A DNA stretch of 64,000 nucleotides from an uncultured bacterium (GCA_963789635.1 CAWBLF010000003.1:204364-268363), one strand, 5' to 3'. Positions 51,124-62,539 are shown, counted from the first letter of the stretch. Made by a program: numbers and translations. Notes: generated by a model not told the origin, from the sequence alone.

Positions 51124-52197
51124 ATGTCCAAAGACTACTATCAAATTTTAGGTGTGCAAAAAAATGCGTCAAAGGAAGAAATCAAAAAAGCCTTTCGTAA
51201 ACTTGCGCATGAATATCATCCGGACAAAAAATCTGGAAATGAAGCAAAGTTTAAAGAAGTAAACGAAGCCTATTCTGTTTTGTCGGATGATCAAAAACGT
51301 TCCCAATACGACACCTTTGGTAATTCGCAATTTGGCGGTACCGGTGGACAAGGTTTTGGTAACGGTTTTGGGGGCTTTGATTTCAGCGGTTTTCAGCAAG
51401 GCGCAAACGGCGGGGTCGAGTTTGATTTGGGAGACATATTTGGAGACATTTTTGGAGGAGGTAGACAACAGGCTCGTCGCGGAAGAGATATTTCGATAGA
51501 TATTACGCTATCATTTCAAGAGGCGGTGTTTGGTGTGGAAAGAACAATAATGCTCAATAAGGTTTCGCAATGTGAGACTTGCCACGGTACGGGTGCTAAA
51601 AAGGGAAGTGAGATGATGACGTGTCAGGTTTGCAATGGTAAAGGGAAAATTAACGAGGTCAGACGTTCAATCATCGGATCATTTTCTTCGGTGCGAACTT
51701 GTGATACTTGCCATGGTACTGGGAAGGTTCCCAAAGAAAAATGTGAAGTATGCAGAGGGGCGGGAGTGTTGAAGCGTGACCAAGATATTAAAGTATCCAT
51801 ACCGGCAGGAATTGACGATGGTGAAATGGTGAGACTTCATGGTATGGGCGAGGCGGTAACCGGTGCGCAATCCGGAGATCTATATATCAAGGTTCACGTT
51901 GAACGCCATTCCGTTTTTATAAAGGAAGGTAATAATTTGTTGATGGATTTACACATAAAACTTTCAGATGCGTTGCTTGGCACAAAAATTGACATAAAAA
52001 CACTTGACGGATCTATCACTCTTTCTATTCCCGAGGGAATAAACTTTTTTGAAGTATTAAGAGTCAAGGGTAAGGGTGTGCCAATAAACACAAGTCGTCG
52101 TGGAGATTTGCTTGTAAAAGTTATTATTGATATGCCGAATAAATTATCACGAGATGTGAAGAAGTCGTTCGAAGAATTGAGAGAAAAGGGTATTTAA
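51124..52197 (+). CDS. dnaJ: co-chaperone DnaJ
   Basis: J-domain HPD, G/F-rich linker, four CxxCxGxG zinc repeats. Confidence 0.95.
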
Positions 52198-52296
52198 GTT
52201 CATTTGACACGATAAGTTTATGAGTGTAGCCTTTTAGACAGAAAGATTTGTCATTTTGGCCTCTTTTTTGTACCTTTAAACAAGGAGGTGATAAGG

Positions 52297-52455
52297 GTGG
52301 GCGAACACAACTTTGACAAGCCAGACGCTGCCAAGGAAACTGACACGTCTACGAGCAAGGTGAGTGAAGCGTGGCATGATGCACGAGAAGCCGCGCAGAA
52401 GTCCGGTGAACTTCCTGAAAGGGAAGCGAGCAAAGAATCAAAGAAAGGTAAGTAG
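52297..52455 (+). CDS. 52-aa hydrophilic small protein (GTG start; not in ORF track)
   Basis: AAGGAGGTGA 5 nt upstream of the GTG; terminator follows; preferred over the antisense track ORF 52251-52502. Confidence 0.45.
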   Translation: MGEHNFDKPDAAKETDTSTSKVSEAWHDAREAAQKSGELPEREASKESKKGK

Positions 52456-52465
52456 CAGTTGATTA

Positions 52466-52499
52466 AAGAGTGAAGTTGAATCTGACTCCACTCTTTTTT
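52466..52499 (+). terminator. rho-independent terminator
   Basis: aagagtg ... cactctt followed by a T-run. Confidence 0.6.
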
Positions 52500-52516
52500 C
52501 ATGATAAAATTATAAT

Positions 52517-52774
52517 ATGAAGAAAAATAATAAGATCGTTATTCATAGCATTTTATGGCAAGATGCGGCTTTTTCAATGGCAACAAAGTTACCAATTGGT
52601 CACCCTTTGCCAACACTGACAGTAGGCTATATTTATTCTAAAAACAGAAAATTTACAAATATTTCCACAAGTTTTTCATATAAAAATGAAGTGATTATAC
52701 CTAAGGATGGTTTTCTAATTCCCAATAAATCTATTATTAAAATTAGTAAAATTGGTAAACATGAAAAAAAATAA
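52517..52774 (+). CDS. small hypothetical protein, paralogue 1
   Basis: 85 aa; shares the I..I.W.DA...........P...P..T.G pattern with the next ORF. Confidence 0.5.
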   Translation: MKKNNKIVIHSILWQDAAFSMATKLPIGHPLPTLTVGYIYSKNRKFTNISTSFSYKNEVIIPKDGFLIPNKSIIKISKIGKHEKK

Positions 52775-53009
52775 AAAAACAATTGAAGTTTTTTGGACTG
52801 ATGCGGTTATATATAAAGCAAACTCAACGATTCCTACGAATTTGCCAATAGTGCAAACAATTGGTGAAAAAATTGAAAAAACAAAGAATTATGTTTTGTT
52901 AAAAAACACAAAAAGCCATCTTACCTCAAGAAAGAGCAAACTTCCAAAAGATAAAGCAAGGTTTTACTTTATTCCGATTGGAATGATAGAAAAAATCAGG
53001 AATTTATAA
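52761..53009 (+). CDS. small hypothetical protein, paralogue 2
   Basis: MKKNKKTIEVFWTDAV...; overlaps paralogue 1 end (track start 52752). Confidence 0.5.
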   Translation: MKKNKKTIEVFWTDAVIYKANSTIPTNLPIVQTIGEKIEKTKNYVLLKNTKSHLTSRKSKLPKDKARFYFIPIGMIEKIRNL

Positions 53010-53054
53010 TTTGTGTATAAAGAGCTAGGGATGTAGTGGTATAATATCAGGGTT

Positions 53055-53555
53055 ATGCAGATACCACAGGAGGTTCTCAAATCATTACTTTCGGCATCAT
53101 CAGATACGATTATAATAGCAGTCCTTATTGGTCTAGGTTTTGCATTTAGTTTTTTTCTCGGCAAGAGACGCGCAATTGCCTTCATACTTTCCTTCTACCC
53201 GAGCATTTTTATATATAAATATTTGCCATTTTTAAGGATGTTTGTCATCAGTAATCCGGTAAATCAAAATCAAGCAGTGATTCCTGTGGTATTGTTTGCG
53301 GGTATATTTTTGCTAATAAATATGGTCATTTATTCTTTTATTTCCGCTGATTTTTCATTTTCTAAGTCAGGCAAACTCATCGAATCACTTGTTTTTGGAA
53401 CAGTCATCGCAAGTTTAGTTTTGTTGTTTTCATATCAAGTCATTAATATGAGTGTTTTCCATCATTTTTCCTCGACCATTAATTTCCTTTTTTCTGATGC
53501 GAATTTTGCATGGTGGCTCATTATTCCATTTCCAGTAATGTACTATTTCAGGTAG
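53055..53555 (+). CDS. hypothetical polytopic membrane protein
   Basis: 166 aa, 4-5 hydrophobic helices. Confidence 0.5.
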   Translation: MQIPQEVLKSLLSASSDTIIIAVLIGLGFAFSFFLGKRRAIAFILSFYPSIFIYKYLPFLRMFVISNPVNQNQAVIPVVLFAGIFLLINMVIYSFISADFSFSKSGKLIESLVFGTVIASLVLLFSYQVINMSVFHHFSSTINFLFSDANFAWWLIIPFPVMYYFR

Positions 53556-53658
53556 ATGTTTATTGAGTCTTTTGAGGCAAATGTTGCTTTGTTGGCCAAA
53601 CTAATTAGTCCCAATTTTGGCTATATTATGCAATATTTTCTGTGCTAAGATAATACTA

Positions 53659-54627
53659 ATGAACAAAGATCGTGTTGTAAAAATATTGGAATTGGCGGTA
53701 AGGGCACCATCCACTCACAATAGTCAACCATGGCTTTTTAAGATCACTGGTAATAGAGTTGAAGTTTTTTTTAACCCAAAATATTTTTTACCATTTGCCG
53801 ACAAAGAAACCCGCGATTTGCATATTAGCATTGGATGCATGCTTGAAAATTTTGTGATTGCGGCTTCAGCCGATAACCTAAAAAGCGTAATTTCGTACGG
53901 ACCGTTTGAAAACAAGACAAAACTTGCAGAAATTATCCTCGAAGAAGCGAGAAATGAACAAACGGAATTATCGGAAAGATTGTTAAAAACAATACCAAAC
54001 CGTGTAAATGCTCGGGGTATTTTTGTTGATGAAAAAATACCTGAAGATGTTTTTAATAAAATTAATTCACTGAATACTAATAATGATCTCGTTATTAGTT
54101 TTTTGAACAAAAAAGAGGATGTCAACAAAATTGCTCAAATCACGGCTTCATCAATTGTGGATGCCTACAGTGAAAAAGGTTTTAGAAAAGAAATGTCTCA
54201 TTGGATGAATAGCAACCTTTCTACTAAAAAAGAAGGTCTTCCCGGTTACTCACTTAAAATGCCTCTTGTTGTGTCCATAGTAATCCCTTTGTTAATCAGA
54301 TATTTTAATCTGGGTAAATTTTTGGCCAAATTGAATATAAAAAGCATCAGTTCAGCTCCACTTATTGTTGTAATCTCAGGTAACGACGGAATTGTTTCCT
54401 GGATGGAAGTTGGCAAGCTTGCTGAGAGAATTATGCTTTACTTGCAATCGTTGGGTTTTCAGACATCCATATACGTCGGATCCATTGAAATAAATGATAA
54501 ATATTTGGAAGTAAAAAAAATTATAAGCACAAAAGACAGACCCCAATTCATTTTTGCTGTTGGGCATATTTTAGGCAAACATAAGATTACCCCAAGGCAT
54601 AGTGTTGAGGATAAAATAATCACATAA
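53659..54627 (+). CDS. two-lobed nitroreductase-family FMN oxidoreductase (Acg / Rv1355c C-terminal-like)
   Basis: ILELAVRAPSTHNSQPWLFKI..., DLHISIGCMLEN; start at the ATG at 53659 (track TTG 53617). Confidence 0.6.
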   Translation: MNKDRVVKILELAVRAPSTHNSQPWLFKITGNRVEVFFNPKYFLPFADKETRDLHISIGCMLENFVIAASADNLKSVISYGPFENKTKLAEIILEEARNEQTELSERLLKTIPNRVNARGIFVDEKIPEDVFNKINSLNTNNDLVISFLNKKEDVNKIAQITASSIVDAYSEKGFRKEMSHWMNSNLSTKKEGLPGYSLKMPLVVSIVIPLLIRYFNLGKFLAKLNIKSISSAPLIVVISGNDGIVSWMEVGKLAERIMLYLQSLGFQTSIYVGSIEINDKYLEVKKIISTKDRPQFIFAVGHILGKHKITPRHSVEDKIIT

Positions 54628-54634
54628 TAAATTT

Positions 54635-55717
54635 ATGAACAAAAATATGGATTACAAACCGGAGTTATTTAATCTTAATGACAAGAAAGAGTTTGAATTA
54701 TTTGAAAAGTTCAAAAAAGTTCACAAAGACTTGGTCTATGTCGATACTCTTGGTGAGCAAAAACACGAATTGATGTTGGTGCGAGATCCATCAATTATTT
54801 CTCATAATTCTCTTGACCCTAGAAACACTGTAGATGTCGCTGACAACGAAGGCGTTTGGGTGTATTTTCCTTGGAAAAGTACCGTAGTGCGAGTATTAAC
54901 GGAATCGGAATACGAAGAGCTAAGGCTTTCCAGAAATAAAAATTTAATAACTTCCGATGAACAAGAAAAACTTTCAAAATCACGCATTGCTATTGCTGGT
55001 CTAAACGTAGGTAATCCCGGGGCAATCTGCATAACTCTTGAAGGGATTTCAAATAAAATAAAATTATCAGATTTTGATCCGTTATCAGTATCAAATTTAA
55101 ATAGATTTCGTGCCGGGCTTCCTGAGCTTGGAATTAATAAAGCGCATATTTCGGCCAGGCAGATGTACGAAATAAATCCGTATGCTGAAATTGAAGTGTA
55201 CAGCGACGGAATTACTCCAGATAATACTGAGGCATTTTTGAATGAACCGAGAATTGATCTTTTGGTTGAAGAAATTGATAATTTGAAGTTAAAGATATCG
55301 ATGCGTGAAAAAGCGCGTGAATTAAAAATACCAGTCGTTATGGTAACAGGGAACGGAGAAAATGTGCTTGTGGACGTTGAACGTTATGACCTCGAGCCAG
55401 AATTACCCATACTTGCCGGTTATTTGGACAAGACTGTCATTGAGCGAATATCCAATATTAAACCCAAAGAGGGAACATACAAGGAACGTATTGATTTGGC
55501 GCGAGATTTCATGGGGACAAATTACCTGGATAAAAGACTTGTATCTTCATTTGATGAAGTGGGCACCACTCTTGCTGGTATTCCTCAATTAGCTGAGTCC
55601 TCTTTTTTAAGAGGTGCTGCTATAGCGCACTTTGCAAAAAAAATATTACTTAAAGAAGCTGTGCCGTCTGGTAGGTATTCGATTTTGATTTCTGGAAACA
55701 TATTTAAAAATGATTAA
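54635..55717 (+). CDS. ThiF/E1-like adenylyltransferase-family protein (Rv1355c N-terminal-like)
   Basis: Rossmann-like IAIAGLNVGNPGAICITLEG, LSDFDPLSVSNLNR, LLVEEIDN resemble the ThiF/MoeB/HesA family. Confidence 0.55.
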   Translation: MNKNMDYKPELFNLNDKKEFELFEKFKKVHKDLVYVDTLGEQKHELMLVRDPSIISHNSLDPRNTVDVADNEGVWVYFPWKSTVVRVLTESEYEELRLSRNKNLITSDEQEKLSKSRIAIAGLNVGNPGAICITLEGISNKIKLSDFDPLSVSNLNRFRAGLPELGINKAHISARQMYEINPYAEIEVYSDGITPDNTEAFLNEPRIDLLVEEIDNLKLKISMREKARELKIPVVMVTGNGENVLVDVERYDLEPELPILAGYLDKTVIERISNIKPKEGTYKERIDLARDFMGTNYLDKRLVSSFDEVGTTLAGIPQLAESSFLRGAAIAHFAKKILLKEAVPSGRYSILISGNIFKND

Positions 55718-56750
55718 AGAAATAAAACCAAAACACAATAAATATTATTCAAAACATCATAAAGTTTTCTATTTTGAAGATAAAAAGGTAAACCTTAGAG
55801 GTTACATTGCATTGCATAAACTAGTAAACGGTTCTGCAACGGGTGGAACGAGACTATACGATTATAAAAGCAGTAAAGATGCTCTTACGGATGTTTTGAA
55901 ACTTTCAAAAGCTATGACTTACAAATGTGTCATTTCAGGAATACCGTTTGGGGGAGGAAAAGCGGTAATCATACGGACTATAAAATTGAAATCAAAAGAT
56001 TTTTTGAAATCATATGCAAAAATTATTGATTCGTTAAATGGCAAGTATACAACTGGGACCGATGTAGGTATTTCCGATGAGGATACAAAATATATGTCCA
56101 CAATTACGCCATATATATTGAGGGGGTCTGGTGGTCATACGACGACATCTTTGATGGCAGCAAAGGGAGTATACGAAGGGATTATTTCATCTATTCATTT
56201 ACTTTTGCCAAAGAAGGAAAATAAATCTATATCTATAGCAATCAAAGGGACTGGAAAAATTGGTTCAGAACTTATACGACTCTTATACAAGCACAATTTT
56301 CAAATATATGCCGGAGAAAAAAATAGCAAAAGTTTAATGGAAATTAAAAAACGTTTTCCAAAAGTAAAAATAGTTAATTACAAAAACATTCACAAGATAA
56401 AAGTGGATATATATTCACCTTGCGCAATGGGAGGTGAGTTTGATAAAAAGACTATAGAGGAATTGAATTGTTACATTATAGCGGGTGGAGCCAATAATCA
56501 GTTTGTAAATGAAGAAGATGAGGCAATAGTTTTTAAAAGAAATATTTGGTATATACCAGACTATTTATTGAATGCAGGAGGTTTGATACAGATTGTTGAT
56601 GAACTTAATAAAGGGGGGTACAATACAAAGCGAGTAAGAAATAATATAAAAAATATTGGGACTACAACCTCACGTTTGATCAAGGAGTCAAGAAGAACAG
56701 GAATTTCTATGCTTAATATTGCGAATAAAATAGTCCATGAAAAAATATAA
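55710..56750 (+). CDS. Glu/Leu/Phe/Val-type amino-acid dehydrogenase
   Basis: GGTRLY..., KAMTYKCVISGIPFGGGKAVI (catalytic-Lys region), GTGKIG NAD(P) fold; overlaps upstream by 8 nt. Confidence 0.7.
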   Translation: MIKEIKPKHNKYYSKHHKVFYFEDKKVNLRGYIALHKLVNGSATGGTRLYDYKSSKDALTDVLKLSKAMTYKCVISGIPFGGGKAVIIRTIKLKSKDFLKSYAKIIDSLNGKYTTGTDVGISDEDTKYMSTITPYILRGSGGHTTTSLMAAKGVYEGIISSIHLLLPKKENKSISIAIKGTGKIGSELIRLLYKHNFQIYAGEKNSKSLMEIKKRFPKVKIVNYKNIHKIKVDIYSPCAMGGEFDKKTIEELNCYIIAGGANNQFVNEEDEAIVFKRNIWYIPDYLLNAGGLIQIVDELNKGGYNTKRVRNNIKNIGTTTSRLIKESRRTGISMLNIANKIVHEKI

Positions 56751-58182
56751 TGGCAATAACGATCTTGCTCCAAACGCCAATGCCTTTGGAGTTTTTGAAA
56801 GGGCGTCAAAAAGCGTACCGGCTTACAAAAAATTTTTAAATGAATATGGAGTAGATTATAAAAAAATTTTGAGAACAAAAGATTTTGACGGTATTCCAAT
56901 TGTTACAAAAGATAATTATCTCAAAGCATTCAGACCGATAGATTTGGTCAAGGATAGAATATTTCCACCTATGGTGTCGGCAAGCTCGGGGTCTTCGGGT
57001 ACACCATATTATTGGCCAAGAGGAGATGAACAAGAAAGGTTTGGAGAACAAGTGCACAGAATTATTCTTGAACAAATATTTAAGTTACAAAAAAAACGAA
57101 CTTTGGCTATCATTTGTTTTTCAATGGGCAATTGGATTGCAGGAACATACACCCTTACTTCGCTTCGTGAAGTGGAACGCACTAACAAGCAATTTCGATT
57201 AACCACAATTACTCCTGGCATCGACAAAGATGATGCTATATCAACGCTGAGAGATCTCGCCCCAATGTTTGATTCTGTAATATTGCTTGGTTATCCTCCA
57301 TTTATTATGGATGTTGTTATAAGCGCAAAAGAATATGGAGTTGATCTCAAAAAATTGGATTTGTACTATATTTTAGCCGGAGAAAATTTTTCAGAAAAAT
57401 GGAGATCCATGCTTCTAAAAGTTTCTGGCACGCCACAAGAAAATAATCGTGTTGTTTCAATTTATGGAACTGCCGATGCCGGCTCCTTGGGGCATGAAAA
57501 CCCTTTTACTGTCGCACTACGCAAGCTTTCTTTGGAACACAAAGAGTTTAGAAAGGAGTTATTTGGTGATATGACTTTTATACCCACTGTCGTTGGATAC
57601 TATCCCGATCAAACTTTTTTTGAGCTAGTGAACGGAGAACTTGTTTTTACGACTGAATCCGGAATACCGCTTATTCGTTACAACATAAAAGACCACGGCT
57701 TATTGATGACGCATAAATATGTCATTTCTTTGCTCAAAAAGCATAATTTATATAAAAGTTTGCCAAAAGAAGTGAAAAAATGGAAAAATCCTCTAGTTAT
57801 CTTAAAAGGGAGAAATGATGTTTCTGTAACTTTTTATGCTTTGAATATTTACCCCGAAAATCTTAAAGCAGGGCTTGAAGACGACGCTGTGTTAACTTTT
57901 GCAACAGGAAAATACATTGCCCGTACCGAACAATCAAATAATTTTAGAGACCAAATCTTTTATGTTGATGTTGAACTTAAGCAAGGGATTAAGCCAACAG
58001 AAAAAATAAGGGAGATTATTTCCTCATCAATTTTTGAGCATTTGATTGAACTAAATTCTGAATACAGAAAATTGTATAATTCAATTCACGAAAAAGCGTT
58101 ACCAAATGTAAGATTGATAAATCATGGTCACGAACAATTTGTCATCAAGAAAGCCAAACATCGTTGGGTTAATAAAAATTAA
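56737..58182 (+). CDS. adenylate-forming enzyme (phenylacetate-CoA ligase / F390 synthetase-like)
   Basis: SASSGSSGTPYYWPR (AMP-binding core motif variant), YGTADAG; overlaps upstream by 14 nt. Confidence 0.55.
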   Translation: MKKYNGNNDLAPNANAFGVFERASKSVPAYKKFLNEYGVDYKKILRTKDFDGIPIVTKDNYLKAFRPIDLVKDRIFPPMVSASSGSSGTPYYWPRGDEQERFGEQVHRIILEQIFKLQKKRTLAIICFSMGNWIAGTYTLTSLREVERTNKQFRLTTITPGIDKDDAISTLRDLAPMFDSVILLGYPPFIMDVVISAKEYGVDLKKLDLYYILAGENFSEKWRSMLLKVSGTPQENNRVVSIYGTADAGSLGHENPFTVALRKLSLEHKEFRKELFGDMTFIPTVVGYYPDQTFFELVNGELVFTTESGIPLIRYNIKDHGLLMTHKYVISLLKKHNLYKSLPKEVKKWKNPLVILKGRNDVSVTFYALNIYPENLKAGLEDDAVLTFATGKYIARTEQSNNFRDQIFYVDVELKQGIKPTEKIREIISSSIFEHLIELNSEYRKLYNSIHEKALPNVRLINHGHEQFVIKKAKHRWVNKN

Positions 58183-58190
58183 AATTAGTA

Positions 58191-59774
58191 ATGGATATCG
58201 GTTTTACTTTCACTTTAATAGTAAGTTTTGCAATCCTATTTATAGGTGTTTTAACAACCTATCATGACAAAAAGAGTGTAACAAATAAATTATTCGCCTA
58301 TATTAGTTTGGTAACCGTAGCGTGGTCTTTTGCAAATTATTTTTCTCTCGAACCAATTTTGTTTTCACAGATTGTTTGGGTTAGGTTGGTTATCTTTTTG
58401 GCAGTTCCACACGTAATTCTTTTTTATCTATTTGTCAGAAATTTTCCTAAAATAAATTTCAGCATACCAAAATACGAGTTTGCTACTTTAAGTGTGCTGG
58501 GTATTTGCATGATGGCTCTCAGTATGACGCCATATGTTTTTTCCGGTCTGAGAATCGTTGGTGGAAACGCAATTCCAGTGCCCGGATTGCTAATAATGGT
58601 GTTTGGTATTTTTGTCATCGCCATGCTTATCAGTGGTGTATTTTTAATAATCAAAAAATATGGCAAGGCAGATCGCAAGGATAAAACTAGTTGGCGAGCA
58701 ATGTTGGTTGGGTTTGTTTTAAGTTATACCCTTCTAATCATCACAAATTTTGTTTTGGTCAATACCAATGGTGATACTGGTTTTATAGTTTACGCACCTC
58801 TATTTATGCTGCCGTCTATTATGGGCACGGCGTATTCTATTATTAGATATAGACTTCTCAATGTAAAAACTATTACGACTGAGATTATAATATTTGTTCT
58901 TTTGACTGTAACGCTAGTCCAAATTACCTTATCTCAAACAACAGCTCAATTTATTTTCAACTCGGTACTGTTTTGTGTCTTTATGATTATTGGGATCTTT
59001 CTTATTAGAAGTGTCATAAAAGAAGTTGAACTTAGAGAATCATTGCAAATTGCAAATACAAAACTACGAGAACTTGATGAACTAAAATCACAATTTTTGT
59101 CATTTGCCAGCCACCAGCTTCGTTCGCCACTGACTGCCATACAAGGTTACACATCTATGCTTCTTGAAGGTGATTTTGGCGAAATGTCCGAGCCGGTTAG
59201 GAACTCTGTCAAAACTGTCGACCAGTCATCAAAAAGTCTAATCACGATAGTCAACGAGTTTCTCGATGTGTCGCGAATTGAGCAGGGAAGAATGAAATAT
59301 GATGTTTCAGATTTTGATATCAAAAAGCTTGCGGAAGAGGTCTTTACTGAGTTGAAACCAAATGCGGAAAAGAAGGGTTTGAAGTTTGAATTTTTGGCTG
59401 ATAACGATGCCGGTTGTATTGTCAATGCGGATCAAGGAAAAATAAAACAAGTAATTGGCAACATCATCGATAATTCAATCAAATATACGGAGACCGGCGG
59501 AATAAAAGTGCAATTGGAACATAAGGATAAAAAAGTTCAAATCAAAGTTTCGGACAGCGGAATTGGTATTGAACCTTCAGAAATTCCGAAACTTTTTTCT
59601 ATGTTCACTCGCGCGGCGGATGCGCATAAAACAAATGTTAGTGGTACGGGGCTCGGGCTTTATGTGGCCAAACAGATGGTGGAGGCCCAAAAGGGAAGAG
59701 TTTGGGTTGAATCTCCTGGCAAAGGAAAAGGATCCACTTTCTATATTGAACTCCCGTTAAAAACCAATAACTAA
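58191..59774 (+). CDS. membrane sensor histidine kinase
   Basis: About 7 N-terminal TM helices; H-box FASHQLRSPL; N box DNSIKYT; G boxes DSGIGI, GTGLGL. Confidence 0.85.
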   Translation: MDIGFTFTLIVSFAILFIGVLTTYHDKKSVTNKLFAYISLVTVAWSFANYFSLEPILFSQIVWVRLVIFLAVPHVILFYLFVRNFPKINFSIPKYEFATLSVLGICMMALSMTPYVFSGLRIVGGNAIPVPGLLIMVFGIFVIAMLISGVFLIIKKYGKADRKDKTSWRAMLVGFVLSYTLLIITNFVLVNTNGDTGFIVYAPLFMLPSIMGTAYSIIRYRLLNVKTITTEIIIFVLLTVTLVQITLSQTTAQFIFNSVLFCVFMIIGIFLIRSVIKEVELRESLQIANTKLRELDELKSQFLSFASHQLRSPLTAIQGYTSMLLEGDFGEMSEPVRNSVKTVDQSSKSLITIVNEFLDVSRIEQGRMKYDVSDFDIKKLAEEVFTELKPNAEKKGLKFEFLADNDAGCIVNADQGKIKQVIGNIIDNSIKYTETGGIKVQLEHKDKKVQIKVSDSGIGIEPSEIPKLFSMFTRAADAHKTNVSGTGLGLYVAKQMVEAQKGRVWVESPGKGKGSTFYIELPLKTNN

Positions 59775-59841
59775 CATATTCTTATCCCCACTTTAAGGAT
59801 ACTCATATTCTCGAGATTACAAGAATTGTTATAATGATGAG

Positions 59842-60132
59842 GTGAAAAAAGGCGAACCGAAAAATTCAAGACAGATGGAAAGACATCTAAAAGGTGTTGC
59901 TAATCATTATCGCATTGATATTTTGCTTTTATTGAAAAGTAAAGGAGTGCTAACCCTAGACGACATTGCTGATAACCTGAACGCAAACATAAAAACGGTA
60001 TCGGGGCATACTGTTAAATTGGTTCATTCAGGTTTATTAAATAAAAAATACGCAGGAAATTCGGTTGAACATTCTTTGTCGCCTTACGGTAAAATTTTTG
60101 TTGATTTCCTGCAAACATTCTCTAATTCTTGA
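59842..60132 (+). CDS. ArsR/SmtB-like winged-helix regulator
   Basis: 96 aa, GTG start; RIDILLLLKSKGVLTLDDIADNLNANIKTVSGH. Confidence 0.55.
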   Translation: MKKGEPKNSRQMERHLKGVANHYRIDILLLLKSKGVLTLDDIADNLNANIKTVSGHTVKLVHSGLLNKKYAGNSVEHSLSPYGKIFVDFLQTFSNS

Positions 60133-60209
60133 GAAAACAAGAATGATTGAATATATTTAAGGCTGAACGATACTTTGAAATAAACCACAAAATTGGTATT
60201 ATCTTGCAT

Positions 60210-61193
60210 ATGACAAACGAGGAGAAAATAATGCTTTCCGGGGTCCAACCGACAGGCAAACCGCATATCGCCAACTATTTCGGCGCAATGAAGCAGTTTG
60301 TTGATTTGCAGAATGAATACAAAAGTTATGTATTTATTGCTGACCTTCACGCTTTGACCAGTATTCAGAATCCCAAGGAAATGAGCAGTAACATTTTGAG
60401 TGTGGCCACTGATTATCTGGCAATTGGTTTGGACCCAAAGAAGACCACGATATACAAACAATCGGATGCACCACAAGTGGCCGAGTTGGCTTGGGTTTTT
60501 GAGTGTATTACCACAATGCCGTATCTTATGCGTGCCCACGCATTCAAGGACGCTTCGGCCAAGAACAGGGAAATCAATGTGGGAGTATACAACTATCCTA
60601 TGTTGATGGCTGCCGATATTCTCATACACGACCCCGATATTGTACCGGTTGGTCTGGACCAAAAGCAACATGTAGAAATTGCTCGGGACACGGCAGAAAA
60701 GTTTAATCGCATTTTCGGAGAAACTTTCAAGGTGCCAAAACCTCTGATAATGGAAAATGTTCAAACTATAGTTGGCACAGACGGACGAAAAATGAGTAAA
60801 AGCTACAAAAATACGATTGAGCTTTTTGCTTCGGACGAAGAAATAAAAAAAGCTGTAATGTCCATTGCCACAGATTCAAAGGGAGTAGATGAGGCAAAGG
60901 ATACAGAAAAAGATAATGTCTTCGCACTTCACAAATTATTCACCGAAGGACCAGAATTTGAAGAGCTCAAAGACCGATACGAATCAGGAGGCATTGGTTA
61001 CAAAGAATCAAAAGAAATTTTGATTAAAAATATTATCAAGTATGTGTCACCACTTCGCGATAAAAGAAAGAAGTTTGAGGATAATCCGGGTTTGGTCAAA
61101 GAAATTTTGACTGAAGGTGGTAAAAAAGCCAGAATTGAGGCCGAAGAAAAAATGGAAGAAATACGAGAAAAGGTTGGTACAAAATTGTCATGA
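60210..61193 (+). CDS. trpS: tryptophanyl-tRNA synthetase
   Basis: SGVQPTGKPHIANYFG, KMSKS; start at 60210 or 60231 (track start 60147 unlikely). Confidence 0.9.
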   Translation: MTNEEKIMLSGVQPTGKPHIANYFGAMKQFVDLQNEYKSYVFIADLHALTSIQNPKEMSSNILSVATDYLAIGLDPKKTTIYKQSDAPQVAELAWVFECITTMPYLMRAHAFKDASAKNREINVGVYNYPMLMAADILIHDPDIVPVGLDQKQHVEIARDTAEKFNRIFGETFKVPKPLIMENVQTIVGTDGRKMSKSYKNTIELFASDEEIKKAVMSIATDSKGVDEAKDTEKDNVFALHKLFTEGPEFEELKDRYESGGIGYKESKEILIKNIIKYVSPLRDKRKKFEDNPGLVKEILTEGGKKARIEAEEKMEEIREKVGTKLS

Positions 61194-62539
61194 AAAGAAC
61201 ACTAATAAAAGATCTCAACGAACATATTGGTAAAGAGGTAACCATTTCTGGATGGGTAAATATAAGACGCGACCAGGGTAAAATGGTCTTTTTTGATATG
61301 CGTGATATGTCAGGTTCCGTCCAGTGTGTTGCGTTACCAAGTCGTGTCCAGGTTATTGAAGTTGCAAAAGAATTTAGGTCAGAATGGGTTCTCAAGATTC
61401 AAGGTCTGGTAAATAAAAGACCGGAAAAAAATATCAGTGAAGGAATTCAAAACGGAAATATTGAAATTGAAGCCGTAAATATTGAAGTCCTTGCAAAATC
61501 TGAACCATTACCATTTGACATCTCACTCAACGGTTACAACCTAGATATTACTACAGAGCTAGACAATCGGGCACTCGTACTAAGACAGCCCAAAATCCAA
61601 GCAATTTTTAAAGTTCAAGAAACAATCATTGATTCCTTCAGAGAATTTATGAAACAGAATAGTTTCTTTGAATTTCAAGCTCCAGCAATTACACCAGCTA
61701 CCGCTGAGGGGGGGGCGGAAGTTTTTCAAATTGACTATTTTGGCAAAAAAGCTTTTTTGACCCAATCACCTCAGCTTTACAAACAAATCGTGATGTCGGC
61801 TTTTGAACGTTGTTTTTCCGTAAACAAAGTATTTCGGGCAGAGCCCTCTTCGACCACAAGACACCTTACAGAAGTGGTTTCGCTGGACGCTGAAATGGGT
61901 TTTATTGATTCATGGACCGACGTTCGCGATATGGCCGAAGAAACCGTGAGACATATGCTCAAGCAAGTTGAAACAAAAAACAGTGAACATCTAAAAATTC
62001 TGGCGCGACAGATCTCCTGTAATGATTGAAAAAACACCGAACACTCTCGCTTCGCGAGGTTCAACAAAAAATATTTGAGACATACGGGAGAGATGTTCGA
62101 GGAGAAAAGGATACCAATCCTCAAGACGAAAGGGAGATTTGTGAAATAGTAAAAAAGGAAACTGGTTCGGATTTTGTATTTATTTATGGTTACCCATCAC
62201 GCAAGAAACCTTTTTATGTTTATCCAAACCCAAAAGAACCAGAGTTTAATGAAGGTATGGATCTTATTTGTCGCGGGGTGGAGTGGCTTTCAGGAGGTAG
62301 AAGGGTTAATGATTATAATCAACTTCTGGAGCAAGTGAAGACTTGGAATATGGATCCAAATAAAATTACCATGTTTCTTCAAGCCTTTAAATATGGTGTG
62401 CCTCCTGAAGGCGGTTTTGCGCTTGGGGCTGAGCGAATAACCATGCAAATTTTGGAGTTGAAAAATATTCGTGAGGCTTCGAATATTTCCACGTGATATG
62501 AATCGGATTGATGAGAGGTTAAATAGTGATGGATTTTAG
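61190..62539 (+). pseudogene. aspS: aspartyl-tRNA synthetase (archaeal/type-2-like) with several frame disruptions
   Basis: OB-fold N-terminus, FRAEPS motif 2, GGFALGAERI motif 3. Frame changes occur around 62005-62040. The conserved end IFPRDMNRI is in frame +1 from about 62482. Confidence 0.8.

Follow-up and report, generated by a model that had tools for sequence, protein, structure and literature searches.

In a 64,000-nucleotide stretch of DNA from an uncultured bacterium (GCA_963789635.1 CAWBLF010000003.1:204364-268363, hereafter the window) we examined a cluster of five genes that code for a nitroreductase-like flavin-dependent oxidase (FDO), a ThiF/E1-like enzyme, an amino-acid dehydrogenase, an adenylate-forming ligase and a seven-transmembrane (7TM) sensor histidine kinase (Table 1). 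On balance, we favor the view that this cluster is a split relative of the oxazolone synthetases OxzB, TyzB/TyzC and TrzS, of a type found in the Candidate Phyla Radiation (CPR, Patescibacteria) and equipped with substrate-supplying enzymes and a cognate sensor kinase. The cluster has the same ThiF/FDO core as the known systems and differs from them in how the precursor would be formed (by a ligase and a deaminating enzyme), in the added sensor kinase and in its broad distribution across CPR. Our literature searches returned nothing relevant on this cluster in CPR, and apparently it has so far been undescribed.

Table 1. Genes of the cluster, with positions counted from the first nucleotide of the window
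Product	Position	Strand	Evidence
Nitroreductase-like flavin oxidase (FDO), predicted C-alpha/C-beta desaturase	53659..54627	+	Pfam, NCBIfam, MsAcg profile match
ThiF/E1-like adenylating cyclase (putative), 360 aa	54635..55717	+	Homology to the N-terminal half of Rv1355c-family proteins
NAD(P)-dependent ELFV amino-acid dehydrogenase (Leu/Phe/Trp type), 346 aa	55710..56750	+	Both ELFV Pfam domains
PaaK-fold (ANL superfamily) adenylate-forming ligase (predicted), 481 aa	56737..58182	+	AF2 model and Foldseek, ANL motifs
7TM sensor histidine kinase (HisKA_7TM-HisKA-HATPase_c), 527 aa	58191..59774	+	Pfam

The first of the known systems to be found was OxzAB (de Rond et al., bioRxiv 10.1101/2020.06.11.147165). 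The mycobacterial protein Rv1355c has since been identified as TrzS, in which a ThiF-like domain cyclizes N-acyl-tryptophan to an oxazolone with ATP, and an FDO domain then desaturates the product in an O2-dependent reaction (Kleetz et al. 2025, PMC12856293). The N-acyl amino acid is formed from acyl-CoA by the adjacent Rv1356c (TrzA), and the mutation D217A in TrzS abolishes cyclase activity (PMC12856293). A split version of this system consists of TyzB (ThiF), TyzC (FDO) and the acyltransferase TyzA (Grigg et al. 2023, PMC10404671). According to a 2025 review, the oxazolone-type ThiF protein alone among ThiF-like enzymes is known to work on a small molecule (PMC12596934). What oxazolones do physiologically has yet to be settled (PMC12856293).

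To place the window among its relatives we collected metagenome contigs and the hits of a genome scan at species level in which the ligase alignment was used as query (276 relatives confirmed, 80 loci kept). All open reading frames (ORFs) within 7 kb of the ligase were compared by BLAST and de novo clustering in 82 non-duplicate loci.

The ThiF-like protein contains the Pfam ThiF domain (5.5e-18) and matches the NCBIfam model of the Rv1355c family (NF005901) with 5.4e-94 and 316 bits over profile positions 7-334 of 722, whereas all other ThiF-type models (MoeB, ThiF, TcdA, SAMP E1) reach 78 bits at most. Its residues 1-356 align with residues 1-334 of a 710-aa Rv1355c-family protein from Rhodococcus qingshengii (35% identity, E 2e-62), and tblastn and BLASTP alignments to Rhodococcus proteins of this family extend over 97-99% of the query, with 34-35% identical residues. 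The R. qingshengii alignment takes in the N-terminal extension of approximately 95 residues and the motifs SNLNR, EE(I/C)D, DVER(Y/F)DLEP, PQL and SGR. As judged from these alignments, the window protein is homologous along its whole length to the N-terminal half of TrzS, N-terminal extension included. Across 35 aligned ThiF homologues, residues R100, N101, G122, G126, N154-R157, K169, E213, D215, K220 and R224 are invariant. The window motif EEID215N aligns with EECD of the Rhodococcus protein, and D215 probably corresponds to the aspartate mutated in TrzS (D217 of M. smegmatis), a correspondence drawn by motif and not by direct alignment. Homologues of the ThiF protein number in the hundreds and, where a source is named, come from Patescibacteria/CPR.

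Because of its fold, the ThiF protein could instead belong to an E1-type protein-conjugation or sulfur-carrier system (MoeB/ThiF/Ubl-like) or to an anti-phage E1-E2 system. MoeB, ThiF and UBA5 are indeed among its PDB matches, and PADLOC returned E1-E2 matches, if weak ones (2e-6 or weaker). We consider this explanation extremely unlikely: the 35 aligned homologues contain neither an invariant cysteine nor a CxxC motif, the 82 loci contain no recurrent partner of the ubiquitin-like, E2, JAB or rhodanese kind, and the MoeB, ThiF and TcdA models score far below the Rv1355c family. The identification of the cluster as a defense system was rejected, as PADLOC gave only generic E1 and HATPase matches.

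Stand-alone TrzS-like ThiF proteins also occur on actinomycete plasmids. When plasmids were searched with the ThiF protein by tblastn, the top matches were annotated Rv1355c-family proteins of Rhodococcus and Mycolicibacterium, and TcdA-type proteins matched far more weakly. On a Streptomyces plasmid (L089 5707-7505) a ThiF gene overlaps the start of a GNAT acetyltransferase gene by 4 nt, and on a Kitasatospora plasmid (L090 5137-8021) another overlaps the start of a gene for ketoacyl synthase (KAS) III, also by 4 nt. The Kitasatospora protein has an extra, unassigned N-terminal region of approximately 290 residues. Both pairs may represent additional variants of a scheme in which an acylating enzyme is combined with a ThiF cyclase.

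The nitroreductase-like protein exceeds the Pfam cut-offs for Nitroreductase and TM1586_NiRdase. Its best NCBIfam model is the Acg-family FMN oxidoreductase (1.6e-52; 179 bits, below the cut-off of 199), and its match to the C-terminal half of the Rv1355c family profile is weaker (1.9e-18). A profile built from 30 CPR nitroreductase-like proteins matches the structure of M. smegmatis Acg (MsAcg, 2YMV) over its whole length (E 8.4e-35), and because of this match we assign the window oxidase to the Acg type of FDO, with a predicted monomeric, duplicated nitroreductase fold. The same structure was named as the closest one to the FDO domain of TrzS (PMC12856293). The window oxidase is also colinear with residues 381-638, in the C-terminal half of the R. 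qingshengii protein, at 20% identity (E 5e-4). These matches bear out the sequence-only reading of the window, by which the first two proteins resemble the two halves of Rv1355c; its description of this family as being of unknown function has been overtaken by the characterization of TrzS (PMC12856293).

The association of these genes is not peculiar to the window. Next to the ligase, a ThiF gene is found in 62 of the 82 loci, a 7TM kinase in 58, an FDO in 54 (in each case together with ThiF) and a response regulator in 27. Among the CPR loci that have enough flanking sequence, 31 of 35 contain ligase, ThiF, FDO and 7TM kinase together. Three gene orders occur, namely FDO-ThiF-ligase-kinase, ThiF-ligase-FDO-kinase and ligase-ThiF-FDO-kinase with the FDO on the reverse strand. 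The full order of the window (oxidase-ThiF-dehydrogenase-ligase-kinase) is repeated in a locus from Nomurabacteria (L008) and in one from Paceibacteria (L009) at 52-64% identity. Lineages with the module include Paceibacteria, Nomura-, Yanofsky-, Niyogi-, Jorgensen-, Terry-, Lloyd-, Wildermuth-, Magasanik-, Doudna-, Woese-, Andersen- and Berkelbacteria, and Saccharimonadales. The earlier reading had called such a pathway unexpected in a minimal CPR-like genome, a judgment that does not stand given that the cluster is conserved across many CPR classes and in chromosomal synteny. The recurrent chromosomal neighbors, DnaJ upstream and the tRNA synthetases CysRS, TrpRS or AspRS downstream (7-9 loci each), suggest old, vertical inheritance despite a dip in GC content. 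This dip spans positions 52001-60000 of the window, from two small upstream ORFs (s1 and s2) and a membrane protein gene through the cluster, with 34.5-35.7% GC as compared to 39-43% on both sides. Recent horizontal acquisition is unlikely since the cluster lies in this synteny in many CPR genomes. A chance pattern can be excluded for the four enzyme genes because they are long ORFs in a stretch of 35% GC and because their synteny is conserved.

No family recurs in the 82 loci beyond the ligase, ThiF, FDO, kinase, response regulator and deaminating enzymes. This result bears on the possibility that ThiF and the flavin dehydrogenase modify a ribosomal peptide, such as s1 or s2, in the manner of ribosomally synthesized and post-translationally modified peptides (RiPPs), thiazole/oxazole-modified microcins (TOMMs) or other microcins. 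E1-like proteins and FMN dehydrogenases are paired in TOMM clusters, several RiPP pathways have ThiF-like enzymes that work on peptides (PMC12596934), and the two paralogous ORFs of 85 aa lie upstream. Nevertheless, peptide maturation is very improbable: the 82 neighborhoods contain no YcaO, which agrees with the earlier statement that this is not a TOMM cluster, and no conserved small ORF, and the nearest characterized relatives of the ThiF protein (the TrzS family) work on small molecules. The s1/s2 pair (52517-52774 and 52752-53009) consists of overlapping genes for proteins of approximately 85 aa each that have a W-x-D-A motif in common and no match in Pfam, NCBIfam or PADLOC. BLAST and tblastn against all loci located the pair in only one further locus, again beside the cluster (L015, 7179-7451 and 7426-7677; 44% and 28% identity). 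The two small upstream paralogues that had been noted earlier are therefore real features of the window, but with 2 of 82 loci they are not members of the system, and we rejected them as precursor peptides or ubiquitin-like partners among its core parts.

Gene fusions connect three of the enzymes directly. An exhaustive profile search with the ligase alignment returned three long proteins among the top 150: a ThiF-ligase fusion of 880 aa (P0279), a ligase-ThiF fusion of 863 aa (P0330) and an ELFV dehydrogenase-ligase-ThiF fusion of 1242 aa (P0355). The triple fusion is present on two independent NCBI assemblies, and in both it is preceded by an FDO and followed by an alpha/beta hydrolase and then a 7TM kinase. 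These natural fusions are strong evidence that dehydrogenase, ligase and ThiF serve one pathway, and the domain order of P0355 agrees with the reaction order proposed below. They also back the gene linkage behind the earlier suggestion that these genes encode the activation and modification of an amino or keto acid, a general idea that we found to be sound. The inserted alpha/beta hydrolase (L092 9732-10607; L093 4550-5425) may provide an extra tailoring or hydrolyzing step.

The ligase has no Pfam match, and its matches to PaaK models are weak (6e-6). A PDB search by sequence alone gave nothing useful, and structure prediction was therefore needed. An AlphaFold (AF2) model based on 41 homologues, with a mean predicted local distance difference test score (pLDDT) of 85.6, retrieved PaaK1, BT_0428, NatL2, AjiA1 and ClxA in Foldseek with E values from 3e-20 to 2e-15 (PaaK1 2Y27 on top, E 2.9e-20). 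The residues that are invariant in the family (S83-G88/P90, Y243-G244-x-A246-D247 with T245 at the position between, Y315/D319, R359/D361 and K474) can be read as the ANL motifs A3, A5, A7, A8 and A10. According to the model, the ligase is a two-domain PaaK/ANL fold with adenylation motifs, and in this respect it resembles PaaK1 and the benzoxazole-pathway enzymes NatL2, AjiA1 and ClxA (PDB 2Y27, 6TM4, 6WUQ and 9S45), which have the same fold and a common set of adenylation motifs. However, its identity to these four proteins is only 14-17%, and with no Pfam or NCBIfam cut-off reached it represents a distinct, mostly CPR family. Exhaustive profile searching yielded 885 representatives at E<=1e-30 and 50% identity clustering, mostly from CPR, and in a homologue search with hundreds of matches all named sources were Patescibacteria/CPR. 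All four domain calls of the earlier reading are thereby upheld, those for the first three proteins by Pfam and NCBIfam and that for the ligase by the AF2 model, Foldseek and the ANL motifs.

Ligases of the NatL2 type (NatL2, AjiA1, ClxA) make ester or amide bonds without CoA, and we predict that the window ligase is likewise an N-acylating, amide-forming enzyme. The Foldseek neighbors include CoA ligases and CoA-independent ligases alike. The ligase could thus be an ordinary aryl-acetate or aryl-acid CoA ligase of amino-acid catabolism, on a route from amino acid via 2-oxo acid to acyl-CoA, with no relation to ThiF and the nitroreductase, consistent with the PaaK fold of the model and with homologues that are annotated as phenylacetate-CoA ligase in their sources. 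The pairing of a tyrosine ammonia-lyase with a CoA ligase is moreover known from flexirubin biosynthesis; the ligase gives a weak match to FlxY of that pathway, and lyases in related loci match FlxA best. Yet we see little chance for a catabolic CoA ligase: the PaaK equivalogs TIGR02155 and NF041878 score 24 and 25 bits against cut-offs of 646 and 700, three fusion architectures join the ligase covalently to ThiF, the two are co-located in most loci, and no downstream CoA-dependent enzymes recur.

The dehydrogenase exceeds the Pfam cut-offs of ELFV_dehydrog_N (PF02812) and ELFV_dehydrog (PF00208). Its best NCBIfam match is the tryptophan dehydrogenase ScyB (1e-78; 265 bits, below the equivalog cut-off of 600), and its closest solved structures are tryptophan dehydrogenase from Nostoc (5B37; E 7e-61, end to end) followed by leucine dehydrogenases. 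The catalytic lysine motifs MTYK and GGGKAV are intact, and by homology the protein is a member of the Leu/Phe/Trp branch of ELFV dehydrogenases. Of the loci compared, the window and its closest relatives, L008 and L009, are the only ones with this enzyme. Within the four-gene unit of the earlier reading, ligase, ThiF and FDO belong to the conserved core; the dehydrogenase is the least conserved gene (3 of 82 loci) and is replaced elsewhere.

Its place is taken in 22 loci by an aromatic amino-acid ammonia-lyase of the 4-methylideneimidazole-5-one (MIO) type (Pfam 1e-161), in 7 by a class I/II aminotransferase and in 2 non-duplicate loci by an IlvE-type aminotransferase, one of which was scanned (L001) and lies above the IlvE cut-off. 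These enzymes are often encoded inside the cluster, for example in the order ThiF-ligase-lyase-FDO-kinase. The dehydrogenase is therefore one occupant of a variable deaminase slot that accepts four unrelated folds, the common property of which is to interconvert an amino acid and its deaminated acid. The MIO lyases have intact ASG, TSG or SSG triads (TSG in 13 of 23 sequences), and their best NCBIfam models are the flexirubin tyrosine ammonia-lyase FlxA (606-616 bits) in most cases or histidine ammonia-lyase (HAL). At the selectivity-switch position all sequences but one carry Ser-His, and from these residues histidine and tyrosine cannot be told apart as substrates with confidence.

Enzymes of this slot might alternatively supply the amine partner: a dehydrogenase or aminotransferase would convert a 2-oxo acid into an unusual amino acid, the MIO enzyme would be an aminomutase, and the ligase would add some other acid. 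The reactions of ELFV dehydrogenases and aminotransferases can run in both directions, the MIO enzymes have good scores on aminomutase models as well (429 bits for Phe_D_beta_mut, 392 bits for Tyr 2,3-aminomutase), and the TSG variant of the MIO motif occurs in some aminomutases. We nonetheless judge this possibility to be unlikely, although it is the alternative that we take most seriously. The best matches of the lyases are ammonia-lyases, a five-membered oxazolone is not obtainable from a beta-amino acid, and no second, acid-supplying enzyme recurs in the 82 loci. To our knowledge, CPR genomes are also devoid of amino-acid biosynthesis, so that 2-oxo acid precursors would be scarce.

The oxazolone pathway that we prefer would proceed in five steps. 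First, the ELFV dehydrogenase would oxidatively deaminate an amino acid of the Trp, Phe or Leu type to the 2-oxo acid; in other lineages this step would fall to the MIO ammonia-lyase, which would give an acrylic acid, or to an aminotransferase. Second, the PaaK-fold ligase would adenylate the deaminated acid and transfer it onto an amino acid at its alpha-amino group, and the resulting N-acyl amino acid would thus be made by a ligase in place of the acyl-CoA-dependent N-acyltransferase of the known systems. Third, the ThiF-like enzyme would adenylate the free carboxylate, so that the amide oxygen could close a 5(4H)-oxazolone ring. Fourth, the Acg-type flavin oxidase would desaturate the C-alpha/C-beta bond to yield a 4-ylidene-oxazolone. 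Fifth, the translationally linked 7TM histidine kinase would sense the product or control the pathway. The four chemical steps are proposed because of the published ThiF/FDO chemistry, the obligatory ligase, the deaminase slot and the lack of a recurrent acyltransferase: no such family recurs within 7 kb on either side of the ligase in the 82 loci, and none was detected by Pfam and NCBIfam among the nine window proteins scanned (52517-60132). The homologies, catalytic motifs, gene linkage across CPR and fusions are direct observations; the substrates, the direction in which the dehydrogenase works, the formation of an amide in place of a CoA thioester, the oxazolone product and the role of the kinase are inferred. 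We hold the five-step scheme as a whole with moderate confidence.

Several observations weigh against this scheme. The activities of the CPR ligase, ThiF and FDO are all predicted, and the ligase may form a CoA thioester, as the annotations of its homologues have it. The FDO matches the Acg family (FDO-B) best, below the cut-off, and is only approximately 20% identical to the FDO domain of TrzS. Characterized FDOs of this kind consume O2, and many CPR bacteria are anaerobes. Approximately 40% of the clusters contain no recognizable deaminase, and since lyases give acrylic acids while dehydrogenases and aminotransferases give 2-oxo acids, the "deaminated acyl donor" is a generalization. Homologues from Nocardia consist of ligase and ThiF without FDO, and a BLAST screen detected no ThiF, nitroreductase or histidine kinase near the ligase of Nostoc. 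Finally, no response regulator is encoded within the 64-kb window. Two candidate ORFs for an FDO in the Nocardia ligase-ThiF loci were negative by profile comparison.

Comparison with the characterized systems shows where the module agrees with them and where it departs. Like the known oxazolone synthetases, the window contains a full-length ThiF protein of the TrzS subfamily with intact adenylation residues and an adjacent FDO, but it has no partner N-acyltransferase. With TrzAS (Rv1356c/Rv1355c) of Mycobacterium it has in common the ThiF domain with its N-terminal extension, an FDO of the nitroreductase superfamily with an Acg-like fold and, presumably, an amino-acid-derived carboxylate as substrate. 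In contrast to TrzAS, ThiF and FDO are separate genes, the FDO resembles the Acg profile more closely than it does the C-terminal half of TrzS, a PaaK-fold ligase is the conserved partner where TrzAS has the N-acyltransferase TrzA, the module additionally includes a deaminating enzyme and a 7TM histidine kinase, and the hosts are CPR bacteria instead of mycolic-acid actinobacteria. TyzACB (Rv2336-Rv2338c), which makes N-acyl tyrazolone, is split like the window cluster, with a stand-alone ThiF (TyzB) beside a monomeric FDO of approximately 340 aa (TyzC). Its acyltransferase TyzA resembles acyl-homoserine-lactone synthases, uses acyl-CoA and has no homologue in the window, where the acyl donor is probably derived from an amino acid by way of the dehydrogenase. 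OxzAB from Pseudoalteromonas rubra produces 4-arylidene oxazolones by ThiF and nitroreductase chemistry, and its authors also suggested a signaling role; unlike the window proteins, OxzB is a fusion, its partner OxzA is an N-acyltransferase and no kinase is linked. The flexirubin enzymes FlxA (tyrosine ammonia-lyase) and FlxY (acyl-CoA ligase) are comparable to the 22 CPR loci that pair an MIO lyase with the ligase, and in both cases a deaminated aromatic acid would be handed to an adenylating enzyme. The window differs from flexirubin clusters in having an ELFV dehydrogenase and neither a lyase nor polyketide genes, with ThiF and FDO as the downstream enzymes.

The histidine kinase had been regarded in the sequence-only reading as a mere flanking gene. 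Its start follows the stop of the ligase gene by 8 nt, a linkage as tight as that among the other four genes, and the kinase is the fifth gene of the unit. The N-terminal 7TM, HisKA and HATPase_c domains all exceed their Pfam cut-offs. Orthologues with 31-52% identity make the kinase a core member of the module, and its gene comes directly 3' of the biosynthetic genes, at a median distance of 10.5 nt and, in 32 of 56 loci, at no more than 30 nt. The response regulators present in a third of the loci (27 of 82) are single-domain proteins. A role of the kinase as product sensor is speculation, prompted by this tight coupling and by the signaling idea that had already been raised for oxazolones. 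Taken further, the module might be a self-contained chemical signaling system of CPR, in which ligase, ThiF and FDO make a labile oxazolone autoinducer from amino acids and the coupled 7TM kinase is the receptor. We advance this extension tentatively and think it rather doubtful; if true, it would provide a dedicated signal for communication from cell to cell among episymbionts or from symbiont to host.

Outside CPR, the ligase homologue of Nocardia abscessus (L072 4052-7810) adjoins an nSTAND1-WD40 NTPase, and that of Nostoc linckia (L070 3586-7521) adjoins two Ser/Thr protein kinases. These signaling proteins echo the kinase linkage seen in CPR.

The genomes of CPR bacteria are very small and encode almost no biosynthesis, and very few pathways for natural products or signals are known from them. 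A probable small-molecule pathway that many CPR classes have kept at a conserved position in the chromosome, tied to one particular sensor kinase, suggests that the molecule is important to their lifestyle. If our assignment is correct, ThiF/flavin-oxidase chemistry extends far beyond Actinomycetota and Proteobacteria, and the N-acyl amino acid precursor would have a second route of formation, one that needs ATP and probably no CoA. The proposed pathway also provides the first functional hypothesis for this family of PaaK-fold ligases, and the genetically linked candidate receptor makes a signaling role of oxazolones directly testable.

The ORF listing confirmed the four enzyme genes with the spacings reported before: a 7-nt gap between oxidase and ThiF (54628-54634), an 8-nt overlap between ThiF and dehydrogenase (55710-55717) and a 14-nt overlap between dehydrogenase and ligase (56737-56750). 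The oxidase gene has a second possible start, a TTG codon at 53617. A scan of positions 52100-60300 for promoters and terminators gave counts no higher than those of shuffled controls, and the Rfam scan of the window returned a single tRNA and nothing else. Between DnaJ and the cluster lies a gene for a multi-pass membrane protein of 166 aa with no family match (53055-53555); a homologue with 28% identity occupies the same position in one other locus (L059 4735-5268), in the order DnaJ, membrane protein, lyase, ThiF, ligase. Upstream of another CPR cluster, two overlapping ORFs of approximately 78 aa (L006 3840-4076 and 4063-4302) are toxin-antitoxin-like in sequence character and unrelated to s1/s2. 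Downstream of the cluster, the AspRS gene of the window (61190-62496) is broken into ORFs of 279 and 156 aa. In an independent Logan assembly of the same organism (L091 5196-6542) this gene is intact and codes for 448 aa, and the two versions differ by small indels around position 62000-62040 of the window. The split in the window looks like an assembly error or a strain-specific frameshift.

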